Position numbers: made by a program
NCBI RefSeq assembly: GCF_044647545.1
Contig: NZ_CP172818.1
Strand: one strand, 5' to 3'
DNA length: 64,000 nt
From: Escherichia coli
Lineage (GTDB): Bacteria; Pseudomonadota; Gammaproteobacteria; Enterobacterales; Enterobacteriaceae
Shown here: piece by piece, positions 57,801 through 60,800 of the stretch
Numbering within the stretch: the first letter of the stretch is position 1
How the letters are laid out: each line of letters begins with the position of its first letter

Positions 57801-60800
57801 GAATAAAATGCATCGCCCAGCGCCACGCCCAGCCCGGTCAGCACCCCTGCGCGTCGACCGGAAGCCAGGCTGGTTTGTACTACCACAAAGAGATTGGCTC
57901 CCGGATTAAAAAAAGTAATCACGAACAGTCCTACGGTCAGGTAAACGGCATGCAAAGGATCCATAGTGATTTCATCCATAAATAAGTGAACTAACTGCAT
58001 CATATTTCTACCAAAAATAATCGGGTGCGAGAGAGATCACAAAGTGTCTTATTTCCGGTTACTGGCGTTTATGCCCTGACTGAACTAATTATTAATCAAC
58101 CCAATAATGTGGGTGGGTGATAGTGTGATAACAACTCTGGAGCCGTAATATGAAAATAATCTCTAAAATGTTAGTCGGTGCGTTAGCGTTAGCCGTTACC
58201 AATGTCTATGCCGCTGAATTGATGACCAAAGCGGAATTTGAAAAAGTTGAATCGCAGTATGAAAAAATAGGTGATATTTCAACCAGCAATGAAATGTCGA
58301 CTGCAGATGCAAAAGAAGATTTGATCAAAAAAGCGGATGAAAAAGGGGCTGATGTGTTGGTACTGACCTCCGGTCAAACTGACAATAAGATCCACGGCAC
58401 GGCAAATATTTATAAGAAGAAGTAATTCTGAATCCTATGTAAACATCTCCGATGCGTAAGTTTATCGGTGATCATCTATTGAAATTTATGCCGGATAAAG
58501 CGTTCGCGCTGCATTCGGCAGTTCAGCTTTTCAGCCGCCGCCAGAACGTCGTCCGGCTGATGCCTAAATAATTCGCCGCTGCTGTTTTATCGCCATTAAA
58601 TTTCTCCAGTGCCTGTTGTGGTGTCAGTAAGCGTGGAGCGGGAGTTTTCGCCGACTCGCGCGCCAGTTCCGGCAGTAGCAGTTGCATAAACTGCGGCGTT
58701 AAATCCGGCGTCGGTTCCACACTTAAAAACAGCGCCAGTCGTTCCATCATATTGCGCAGTTCACGAATATTGCCTGGCCAGTCGTAGTGCAGCAGCACAG
58801 TTTCACTTGCCTGTAACCCCTGGCGTAATGCAGCAGAAAATGGGGCGGAGAGCGCCGCCAGAGACACTTTCAAAAAGCTTTCCGCCAGCGGAAGAATATC
58901 CGCCACCCGCTCGCGCAGTGGTGGCAATTGCAGACGCAAAATACTCAGCCGATAAAACAGATCACGGCGAAAACGTCCTTGCTGCATATCTTCTTCCAGA
59001 TTGCAGTGAGTGGCGCTAATGACCCGTACATCTACCGGAACAGGCTGATGCCCGCCGACGCGGGTGACCTCTTTTTCTTCCAGCACCCGCAGCAGCCGGG
59101 TCTGCAAAGGTAGCGGCATTTCGCCAATCTCATCCAGAAACAGCGTACCGCCGTGGGCAATTTCGAACAGCCCGGCGCGACCTCCGCGTCGCGAGCCGGT
59201 AAACGCCCCTTCCTCATAGCCAAACAGTTCTGCTTCCAGCAGCGATTCGGCAATCGCCCCGCAGTTGACGGCAACAAACGGATGCGACTTTTTGCCCTGT
59301 CGCGCATCGTGGCGGGCAAAATATTCCCGATGAATCGCCTGGGCCGCCAGCTCTTTGCCCGTCCCCGTTTCCCCCTCAATCAACACCGCCGCACTGGAGC
59401 GGGCATACAGCAAAATAGTCTGCCGTACTTGTTCCATCTGTGGTGATTGACCGAGCATATCGCCCAGCACGTAACGAGTACGCAGGGCGTTGCGGGTGGC
59501 ATCGTGAGTGTTATGGCGTAACGACATGCGCGTCATATCCAGCGCATCGCTGAACGCCTGGCGCACGGTGGCGGCGGAATAGATAAAAATTCCGGTCATT
59601 CCGGCTTCTTCTGCCAAATCGGTAATCAGCCCTGCGCCGACCACCGCTTCGGTGCCGTTAGCTTTTAGCTCGTTAATCTGCCCGCGTGCGTCTTCCTCGG
59701 TAATGTAGCTACGTTGGTCGAGGCGCAAATTAAAGGTTTTTTGAAACGCCACCAGCGCTGGAATGGTTTCCTGATAGGTGACAACGCCGATAGAAGAGGT
59801 GAGTTTTCCGGCTTTTGCCAGTGCCTGTAACACATCGTAGCCGCTCGGTTTAATCAAAATAACTGGCACTGACAGGCGGCTTTTCAGGTACGCGCCGTTA
59901 GAGCCAGCCGCGATGATGGCGTCACAGCGTTCGTTTGCCAGTTTCTTGCGGATGTAGGTCACTGCTTTTTCAAAGCCAAGCTGAATAGGGGTAATGTTCG
60001 CCAGGTGATCAAACTCGAGGCTGATATCGCGAAACAGCTCGAACAGGCGCGTTACAGATACCGTCCAGATAACCGGTTTGTCGTCATTAAGCCGTGGTGG
60101 ATGTGCCATAGCGCACCGCAAAGTTAAGAAACCGAATATTGGGTTTAGTCTTGTTTCATAATTGTTGCAATGAAACGCGGTGAAACATTGCCTGAAACGT
60201 TAACTGAAACGCATATTTGCGGATTAGTTCATGACTTTATCTCTAACAAATTGAAATTAAACATTTAATTTTATTAAGGCAATTGTGGCACACCCCTTGC
60301 TTTGTCTTTATCAACGCAAATAACAAGTTGATAACAAAGGATGGGCTATGTCTCTACACTCTCCAGGTAAAGCGTTTCGCGCTGCACTGACTAAAGAAAA
60401 TCCATTGCAGATTGTTGGCACCATCAACGCTAATCATGCGCTGTTGGCGCAGCGTGCCGGATATCAGGCAATTTATCTTTCTGGCGGTGGCGTGGCGGCA
60501 GGTTCGCTGGGGCTGCCCGATCTCGGTATTTCTACCCTTGATGATGTGCTGACCGACATTCGCCGTATCACCGACGTTTGTTCGCTGCCGCTGCTGGTGG
60601 ATGCGGATATCGGTTTTGGTTCTTCGGCCTTTAACGTGGCGCGCACCGTGAAATCGATGATTAAAGCCGGTGCGGCAGGATTGCATATTGAAGATCAGGT
60701 TGGTGCGAAACGCTGCGGTCATCGTCCGAATAAAGCGATCGTCTCGAAAGAAGAGATGGTGGATCGGATCCGCGCGGCGGTGGATGCGAAAACCGATCCT

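Follow-up and report, generated by a model that had tools for sequence, protein, structure and literature searches.

prpR encodes a sigma-54 enhancer-binding activator and lies on the minus strand of the 64-kb stretch of Escherichia coli DNA that was analyzed as a whole (the window, to which all coordinates refer). Its product carries the Pfam domains PrpR_N (residues 36-196, E-value 8e-52), Sigma54_activat (219-393, 1e-65), AAA_lid_14 and HTH_8 (498-527, 9e-11). prpB begins at 60348 on the plus strand and encodes a PEP_mutase/ICL-family protein according to Pfam. The two genes diverge from a 238-bp intergenic region, and the features of the locus are as follows.

58523-60109, minus strand: prpR, coding for a 528-aa sigma-54 enhancer-binding activator with its ATG at 60109, 100% identical to K-12 b0330
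60153-60210, no strand assigned: predicted PrpR upstream activating sequence, a GTTTCA/TGAAAC array centered at about -130 from the predicted start
60153-60176, no strand assigned: prpR-proximal dyad GTTTCAT-N10-ATGAAAC, with a degenerate half-site GTTGCA in its spacer (60164-60169)
60181-60186, plus strand: hexamer that reads TGAAAC in E. coli only; E. albertii carries TGAAAT here, and other loci lack it
60193-60214, plus strand: TGAAACGTTAACTGAAACGCAT, combining the right half of the CGTTTCATGAAACG dyad (Salmonella, Citrobacter) with a further hexamer that reads TGACAC in other genera
60244-60256, minus strand: TTTCAATTTGTTA, a candidate IHF site that departs from WATCAANNNNTTR at one position, centered at about -62
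60286-60301, plus strand: sigma-54 promoter of prpBCDE, exact consensus, the same as K-12 ChIP-seq motif OS01
60308-60334, no strand assigned: inverted repeat TTATCAAC-N11-GTTGATAA, a putative element spanning the predicted start and the leader
60312, plus strand: predicted transcription start, 12 nt past the C of the -12 GC
60338-60341 and 60348-60350, plus strand: Shine-Dalgarno AGGA and prpB start codon, from direct reading, the prpB annotation and the PEP_mutase/ICL domains

Positions 57264-60976 are 100% identical to E. coli K-12 MG1655 (NC_000913.3). Both flanks of this segment carry single-base indels, and prpC and prpD are broken into short ORFs; poly-C and poly-A runs accompany these frameshifts within 61230-64000. 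Compared with K-12, the 3' end of prpB, prpC and prpD show third-codon-position substitutions and indels, and the prpB-prpC spacer of about 400 bp is missing. The initial annotation had placed the promoter in a prpR-prpB divergent region that is well preserved within an error-prone stretch; both points hold, and this region, flanked by prpR and prpB, is 100% identical to annotated E. coli genomes.

The promoter element of prpB consists of TGGCAC (60286-60291), ACCCC (60292-60296) and TTGCT (60297-60301) on the plus strand, with GG at 60287-60288 and GC at 60299-60300 in the GG-N10-GC spacing. A search with the pattern TGGCACNNNNNTTGCW found a single match over the two strands of the 64-kb window, where 0.10 was expected from shuffles. 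Four matches were found when one mismatch was allowed, among which 60286-60301 is the sole perfect site. The TGGCAC-N5-TTGCT element with exact -24/-12 spacing that had been proposed at this position is confirmed base for base. It faces prpB in sense orientation, and the predicted start lies 36 nt before the ATG. Sigma-54 ChIP-seq in K-12 placed peak OS01 here, with the motif GTGGCACACCCCTTGCT centered at U00096.2 347851 and a predicted start 36 nt upstream of prpB (PMC4591121). When transferred to the window, the OS01 motif occupies 60285-60301, with the start at 60312 and the ATG at 60348, and its sequence is identical. The start at 60312, predicted from the spacing, agrees with the rule of that study (motif centre + 19). 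The site had been described as known biology, and the K-12 ChIP-seq peak indeed falls on the same 17-mer. Genomic SELEX also revealed RpoN holoenzyme bound in the prpR/prpB spacer, with the peak at 347864, or about 60306 in the window (PMC8743547).

The leader element TAACAAGTTGATAACA is invariant in the alignment of Escherichia, Citrobacter and Kluyvera. A leader RNA element was considered and not accepted: the 8-bp hairpin scores z = -1.86, and most of its 5' arm precedes the predicted start. An Rfam scan of 60050-60450 gave only a chance match below threshold (uup, at 16.8 bits where the gathering score is 36.8).

Upstream of the promoter, direct reading gives GTTTCAT at 60153-60159, a 10-nt spacer at 60160-60169 and ATGAAAC at 60170-60176, followed by TGAAAC hexamers at 60181-60186, 60193-60198 and 60205-60210. 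Among the exact hexamers of 60153-60210, one is inverted and four are direct, and the degenerate GTTGCA comes in addition. The segment shows dyad symmetry, and about 75-135 bp separate it from the -24 element downstream. TGAAAC is not over-represented in the whole window (36 found, 37 expected), yet five of these 36 copies fall within 58 bp, whereas the largest cluster per 64 bp reached three in 1000 dinucleotide shuffles of the window. None of 5000 shuffles of the intergenic region had at least four copies. A repeat search independently recovered the 7-nt arms with their 10-nt gap and three direct copies of TGAAACG. The inverted repeat and additional half-sites named in the initial annotation are therefore present, with three hexamers beyond the dyad and a clustering that exceeds the shuffles.

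Conservation was assessed in an alignment of nine sequences from five enterobacterial genera. The spacer between the genes contains three conserved islands, namely the prpR-proximal inverted repeat (87.5% invariant columns, spacer included), TGAAACGTTA.CTGA.ACG at 60193-60214 (68%) and the -24/-12 element (75%). In contrast, 60215-60285 has 6% invariant columns, and the rest of the intergenic region drifts. Four divergent E. coli strains keep all hexamers and both promoter dinucleotides, and most of the 5-9 substitutions that each strain carries are located in the AT-rich spacer. TGGCAY-N5-TTGCW precedes prpB in E. albertii, four Citrobacter, Kluyvera and the Salmonella-like loci, as well as in Photorhabdus, Rugamonas, an Oxalobacteraceae MAG, a Burkholderiaceae MAG and Xanthomonas massiliensis. 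It also occurs in a Herbaspirillum locus (L013), where the gene upstream was not identified. A contig search with full-length PrpR yielded orthologues at 15 of 80 loci, none of them from Salmonella, and the FLDEIGEM pattern drew other sigma-54 activators. The half-site array and the promoter element adjoin prpR orthologues (44-63% identity) in Photorhabdus, Rugamonas, the Oxalobacteraceae MAG, Herbaspirillum and the Burkholderiaceae MAG. Distant loci carry arrays of 3-6 hexamers, with GTTTCA copies followed by TGAAAC copies, and these adjoin prpR in nine of ten cases. In X. massiliensis the hexamers take the variant forms GTTTCG/CGAAAC, and one exact hexamer only is present in a Burkholderiales MAG.

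PMC4987338 gives CGTTTCATGAAACG as the PrpR enhancer consensus of Salmonella and 2-methylcitrate as the signal. TGAAAC/GTTTCA is the half-site of this published enhancer, and together with the conserved islands this agrees with the earlier view of the hexamers as PrpR enhancer sites. The contiguous palindrome itself is not intact in Escherichia, where same-orientation hexamers are in place; the half-site is kept and the arrangement is not. Citrobacter and the Salmonella-like loci have GTTTCA as the left half of the CGTTTCATGAAACG dyad, where E. coli and E. albertii read ATTGCC or GTGTC. Of the three extra hexamers, only 60193 is conserved outside Escherichia, and those at 60181 and 60205 are Escherichia-specific. 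PrpR probably contacts hexamers of this array in E. coli; its contacts are known through secondary citations, and for Salmonella.

Four Salmonella-like prp loci (L093, L114, L149 and L187), the only prp loci among those that the scan gave, were retrieved from metagenomes with the published 18-mer. Salmonella enterica shares the divergent prpR/prpB layout (Palacios & Escalante-Semerena 2000, 2004, as cited in PMC4987338, PMC5566544 and PMC3844500). The Salmonella-like dyad, GTTTCAT-AAATGTTGCA-ATGAAAC, differs from that of E. coli by one spacer base, and TGAAACGTTAGCTGACACG is nearly the same in both. The comparison of Salmonella with E. coli gives TGGCATAGCCTTTGCT versus TGGCACACCCCTTGCT for the sigma-54 promoter, while the Salmonella palindrome CGTTTCATGAAACG is ATTGCCTGAAACG in E. 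coli, which has the additional hexamers at 60181 and 60205. In E. coli, enhancer and promoter stand about 35 bp closer together, with a spacer unrelated in sequence, and the leader element TAACAAGTTGATAACA corresponds to TAACAATTTACTAACA in the Salmonella-like loci. The Escherichia lineage may have rearranged its PrpR enhancer, losing the left half of the CGTTTCATGAAACG dyad, which is perfect and promoter-proximal in Salmonella and Citrobacter, and gaining two same-orientation hexamers (60181 and 60205), which would give two inverted and four direct half-sites with 10-12 bp spacing in a Betaproteobacteria-like layout. This proposal is tentative, and we consider it possible rather than probable.

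According to a citation in PMC5566544, Salmonella prpBCDE requires PrpR, sigma-54 (ntrA) and IHF; CRP control is given in that paper as well. Between enhancer and promoter, WATCAANNNNTTR has one-mismatch matches only (60244-60256, 60255-60267 and 60258-60270), and the sole perfect IHF consensus lies at 60321-60333 on the minus strand, inside the inverted repeat and downstream of the predicted start. Three of the four divergent E. coli strains differ within the match at 60244-60256, only at unspecified positions (60247-60249), and the match is not conserved outside Escherichia in the alignment. It is a candidate for the IHF site that may be used at the prpB promoter. IHF and CRP inputs are absent from the initial annotation.

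Other readings of these elements can be weighed against this evidence. The GTTTCAT-N10-ATGAAAC dyad may mainly serve the prpR promoter, as an operator or a site overlapped by CRP, so that only the promoter-proximal hexamers form the prpB enhancer. The dyad ends 44 bp short of the prpR start codon, the 10 nt between its arms are conserved across genera although this is not required of a pure two-half-site operator, and K-12 annotation calls PrpR a "dual regulator". Two papers report a CRP site overlapping the PrpR operator (PMC9452892) and a single CRP site said to serve both divergent promoters (PMC3105977). However, the best spacer matches to the CRP core TGTGA-N6-TCACA reach 6 of 10 positions, a background level of about 37 per kb in the window, and neither a promoter scan nor a looser one (8 or more of 12 consensus positions) found a sigma-70-like promoter for prpR on the minus strand. 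In betaproteobacterial loci, inverted half-sites run on into direct ones without a break, pointing to one site of PrpR assembly. This division of roles is unlikely, and an operator role toward prpR is in any case compatible with an enhancer role toward prpB.

It is very improbable that the hexamers belong to another regulator such as Cra/FruR. The Cra/FruR half-site is TGAAWC. TGAAAC fits its left half-site, and a single one-mismatch match to RSTGAAWCSNTHHW occurs at 60203-60216, but the window contains 20 such matches where 13.9 are expected, and this candidate was rejected as not above background. Moreover, the array accompanies prpR in both Gamma- and Betaproteobacteria, the literature search found no Cra link to the prp operon, and the published PrpR enhancer is built from the same half-site (PMC4987338). 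One of two papers that mention both prpB and Cra (PMC5829826) probably concerns, by its title and abstract, the unrelated phosphatase PrpB. Most E. coli sigma-54 sites are bound by inactive holoenzyme in laboratory conditions, and EcoCyc then gave the prpB promoter as predicted only (PMC4591121), so the -24/-12 match could be an occupied but silent site, with prpB transcribed from another promoter. This is hardly credible for an intergenic, sense-oriented site 36 nt from its gene, beside a dedicated enhancer-binding protein gene and conserved across genera. The scan found no sigma-70-like promoter, and PrpR-controlled promoters are among those listed as active in vivo in E. coli (PMC4551910), which for this species is indirect evidence of dependence on rpoN and an activator. 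In Salmonella, sigma-54 binds the homologous promoter (ChIP-chip site), and the wild-type/rpoN ratio for the operon is 45-fold (PMC3844500).

We regard it as very likely that prpR and prpBCDE diverge from a shared control region here, with a sigma-54 promoter and an upstream PrpR half-site array that would work in the following way; no observation speaks against this reading. Sigma-54 RNA polymerase would form a closed complex at 60286-60301 that is unable to open alone. PrpR, encoded immediately to the left, would bind the half-sites in 60153-60210 through its C-terminal Fis-type helix-turn-helix. 2-Methylcitrate, formed from propionate via PrpE and PrpC, would bind the N-terminal domain of PrpR, upon which the AAA+ domain would oligomerize. 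IHF may bend the AT-rich spacer and bring the PrpR oligomer to the polymerase, and ATP hydrolysis would open the promoter, with transcription from near 60312, 36 nt before prpB. The basis of this reading in the present analysis is the elements, their statistical distinctness, the PrpR domains and the cross-genus conservation of the same elements. Sigma-54 occupancy in K-12 comes from the literature, as do the RpoN/PrpR/IHF dependence, the 2-methylcitrate signal and the PrpR enhancer sequence of Salmonella, in part from secondary citations.

Enhancer-binding-protein/IHF/sigma-54 promoters include those activated by NtrC at glnAp2 and NifA at nifH. The prpB promoter shares with them the GG-N10-GC element, a bendable, AT-rich spacer that separates it from activator sites some 80-150 bp upstream, and an activator of the AAA+ type whose C-terminal domain is HTH_8. 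Unlike activators of that type, PrpR has a PrpR_N ligand sensor for 2-methylcitrate in place of a phosphorylated receiver domain, and its half-site is TGAAAC. The closest system is the K-12 prpBCDE promoter itself (OS01 of Bonocora et al. 2015, PMC4591121; the PprpB/PrpR pair of the pPro vectors), which is identical in sequence. Motif, centre, predicted start and 36-nt distance coincide, and there is no difference within the control region.

The prpB promoter observation is real, correctly interpreted, already known and ordinary. The prpBCDE promoter is a textbook sigma-54 case, mapped by ChIP-seq and used in propionate-inducible vectors and biosensors, so it has little value as a discovery. 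The value of the check is that a call made from sequence only was accurate, and that an intact control region, identical to that of K-12, is present amid frameshifted neighbors. If the prpC and prpD frameshifts are real, the cell would be unable to make the co-activator 2-methylcitrate, and propionate could therefore not induce the prpB promoter. The cross-genus hexamer map could guide the design of minimal promoters for propionate sensors. In PMC5566544, the E. coli PrpR/PprpB pair is reported to give threefold weaker output than the Salmonella pair. Should PrpR assembly differ between the two layouts, the rearranged enhancer could account for the weaker output. If the rearrangement is true, it would mean that dyad and direct-repeat layouts can replace each other at the sites of a sigma-54 activator, and that the activator tolerates this turnover.

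The intergenic region under study was assigned by the initial annotation to the divergent prpR-prpB spacer, and the flanking genes bear this out. The segment 59600-60900 matches many complete E. coli genomes at 100% identity between annotated prpR and prpB, and 57264-60976 shows zero differences from K-12 MG1655. PrpR carries PrpR_N, Sigma54_activat, AAA_lid_14 and HTH_8 domains; PrpB belongs to the PEP_mutase/isocitrate-lyase family. Of 5426 complete E. coli genomes, 5218 contain the 238-bp spacer, with an identity of 95% or better in almost every case. Four strains from the divergent end of this ranking have 5-9 substitutions each, mostly in 60227-60263 and one in the promoter's unspecified N5; all hexamers and the GG and GC of the promoter are kept. 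In E. coli SCPM-O-B-9504, the locus (1403-3451) is rearranged by two IS1 copies. Only the N-terminal part of prpR is left and one IS1 lies between the promoter region and prpB, so the operon is severed from its control region.

Features of the prpR-prpB region
58523-60109, minus strand: prpR
60153-60159 and 60170-60176: dyad arms GTTTCAT and ATGAAAC, 10-nt spacer, read directly
60181, 60193 and 60205: further TGAAAC hexamers, read directly
60244-60256, minus strand: candidate IHF site centred near -62, the best placed of the one-mismatch matches
60286-60301, plus strand: sigma-54 promoter, TGGCAC (60286-60291), N5, TTGCT (60297-60301), read directly in 59900-60600
60308-60334: inverted repeat TTATCAAC-N11-GTTGATAA, straddling the predicted start site
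60321-60333: perfect IHF consensus match downstream of the predicted start, within the inverted repeat
60348, plus strand: start of prpB

The proposed sigma-54 promoter, TGGCAC-N5-TTGCT with exact -24/-12 spacing, is present as described, with GG at 60287-60288, GC at 60299-60300 and the canonical ten bases in between. A scan with the pattern TGGCACNNNNNTTGCW, the check suggested by the initial annotation, gave a single exact occurrence on both strands of the 64 kb against 0.10 expected; a one-mismatch search returned four matches, of which this is the sole perfect one. Bonocora et al. (2015) reported a K-12 sigma-54 ChIP-seq peak, OS01, with the plus-strand motif GTGGCACACCCCTTGCT, whose centre is U00096.2 position 347851, and a predicted start 19 bp 3' of the motif centre and 36 bp before prpB (PMC4591121). 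In that numbering prpB begins at 347906, equivalent to 60348 in the window, which places the motif at 60285-60301 and the predicted start at 60312; 12 nt counted on from the final C of the -12 element lead to the same position. RpoN holoenzyme binds the prpR/prpB spacer in vitro at 347864 (Shimada et al., 2021; PMC8743547), or about 60306 in the window. In Salmonella, sigma-54 binds the homologous site TGGCATAGCCTTTGCTTT, and wild-type expression of prpBCDE is 45-fold above that of an rpoN mutant (PMC3844500).

The dyad GTTTCAT-N10-ATGAAAC and its additional half-sites are likewise in place, and a repeat search recovers the same arms together with three direct TGAAACG copies. TGAAAC has no window-wide enrichment (36 found, 37 expected); its clustering here, with five TGAAAC/GTTTCA copies inside 58 bp, is far beyond chance. 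In 1000 shuffles that preserved dinucleotides, no 64-bp stretch held more than three copies, and when just the intergenic region was shuffled, four or more copies never arose (0/5000). Reviews citing Palacios and Escalante-Semerena (PMC4987338, PMC5566544) give CGTTTCATGAAACG as the PrpR enhancer consensus, 2-methylcitrate as the inducing signal, and prpR, ntrA and ihf as required.

A PrpR scan with one genome per species returned many unrelated sigma-54 activators and orthologous loci in E. albertii, two Citrobacter, two Photorhabdus, several Oxalobacteraceae and Burkholderiales, Herbaspirillum and Xanthomonas massiliensis. Exact-protein look-ups added Kluyvera, C. koseri and C. amalonaticus, and four Salmonella-like loci were drawn from metagenomes with a published 18-mer as query. 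Alignment of nine spacer sequences from five genera places conservation in sharp islands.

Invariant columns in the nine-sequence alignment
60110-60150: 12%
60153-60176, dyad including its spacer: 87.5%
60177-60192: 6%
60193-60214, TGAAACGTTA.CTGA.ACG: 68%
60215-60285, spacer: 6%
60286-60301, promoter: 75%

Distant loci have two or three GTTTCA and, after them, one to four copies of TGAAAC; where a sigma-54 promoter is recognisable, TGGCAY-N5-TTGCW lies 40-135 bp beyond the array and, in all of these loci but that of Herbaspirillum, upstream of prpB. In two Massilia loci (L007, L009), the place of prpB opposite the array next to prpR is taken by a small DUF485-like membrane gene and a cation/acetate symporter-like gene, as read from a translation by eye, and the stretch upstream of prpR showed no strict sigma-54 consensus.

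The half-sites of the Salmonella-like and Citrobacter loci start at relative positions 0 (GTTTCA), 11 (degenerate GTTGCA), 18 (TGAAAC), 34 (GTTTCA), 40 (TGAAAC) and 52 (TGACAC). They can be read as three nested pairs with one common centre, a layout that would fit an oligomer made of dimers. The positions are unchanged in E. coli, but 34 is ATTGCC, 52 is a perfect TGAAAC and another TGAAAC stands at 28. Two half-sites are then inverted and four direct, a make-up shared with the Oxalobacteraceae metagenome-assembled genome L012. The reading of the half-sites as PrpR enhancer sites is supported. Escherichia lacks an intact copy of the contiguous palindrome published as the PrpR consensus. This modest difference is the only departure from the published description. 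A more novel but less likely reading is that the enhancer layout has been remodelled in the Escherichia lineage, which may be connected with the weaker output of the E. coli promoter reported for expression vectors (PMC5566544).

Between enhancer and promoter, all matches to the IHF consensus WATCAANNNNTTR carry one mismatch. Strain variation within the candidate at 60244-60256 is confined to its four unspecified bases, and the nine-sequence alignment shows no conservation of it outside Escherichia. Only five perfect IHF matches occur in the window, one of them inside the 60308-60334 repeat. Within this repeat, Escherichia, Citrobacter and Kluyvera share an unchanged TAACAAGTTGATAACA, which is altered in the Salmonella-like loci; the upstream IHF candidate is a 78% direct copy, at 60244-60261. 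The leader RNA fold is weak (z = -1.86), with its 5' arm mostly before the start, and the leader matched no Rfam family.

In the strongly favoured model, sigma-54 holoenzyme sits as a closed complex on 60286-60301 and PrpR on 60153-60210. 2-Methylcitrate lifts PrpR_N inhibition, the AAA+ ring is carried to the polymerase by the bent, AT-rich spacer, and the promoter is opened near 60312 by ATP hydrolysis. The sequence elements and their conservation were observed directly, sigma-54 occupancy has been demonstrated in the literature for exactly the present sequence, and the genetic dependences have been demonstrated in Salmonella. For E. coli, the contacts made by PrpR at single sites, the IHF site and the start point are predicted. 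It is rather unlikely that the dyad also, or mainly, controls prpR itself, possibly with CRP, a role compatible with activation of prpBCDE. CRP reportedly acts on both divergent promoters via a site overlapping the PrpR operator (PMC9452892, PMC3105977); the best CRP core in the spacer matches 6/10, and scans revealed no recognisable sigma-70-like prpR promoter.

Cra as the reader of TGAAAC is highly improbable, as its consensus matches no better than background and the array accompanies prpR across classes. The chance that the sigma-54 site is silent is slighter still. The feature is real and already known, and its reading in the initial annotation as a sigma-54 promoter with upstream PrpR sites is supported.

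Downstream, a 17-C run (61235-61251) replaces the end of prpB including the stop codon (ATAAAAC in strain EcPF15), and eight extra A follow 30 nt beyond (61279-61289); prpB consequently reads through to 61304, giving 318 instead of 296 amino acids. Both have the look of artefacts from sequencing or cloning, or of hypermutable tracts. The substitutions at the prpB 3' end represent real divergence rather than error, because 16 of 17 fall at third codon positions. The prpB-prpC spacer of about 400 bp in K-12 (6570-6974 of locus L002) and strain 214-4 is absent at 61235-61263 and in EcPF15, the top hit, where one alignment of ungapped length spans the junction and the spacer is about 44 bp; the spacer length is a natural polymorphism. 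Compared with K-12, the window is a mosaic in which zero-substitution blocks (about 2001-12000 and 58001-60000) are interspersed with blocks that diverge by 1.5-4.5%; part of the K-12 CP4-6 prophage with IS1C belongs to the substitution-free sequence. Different DNA occupies the IS3A position (about 25776-28240), and indels cluster at 46000-50000 and 55800-57300. In 61301-64000, none of the 5426 complete genomes exceeds 97.5% identity. Counted against K-12 and against the complete genome that matches best, about ten single-base indels lie in prpC and prpD there, and both genes are broken up into short ORFs. If these frameshifts are real, the strain would be unable to make the inducer 2-methylcitrate.
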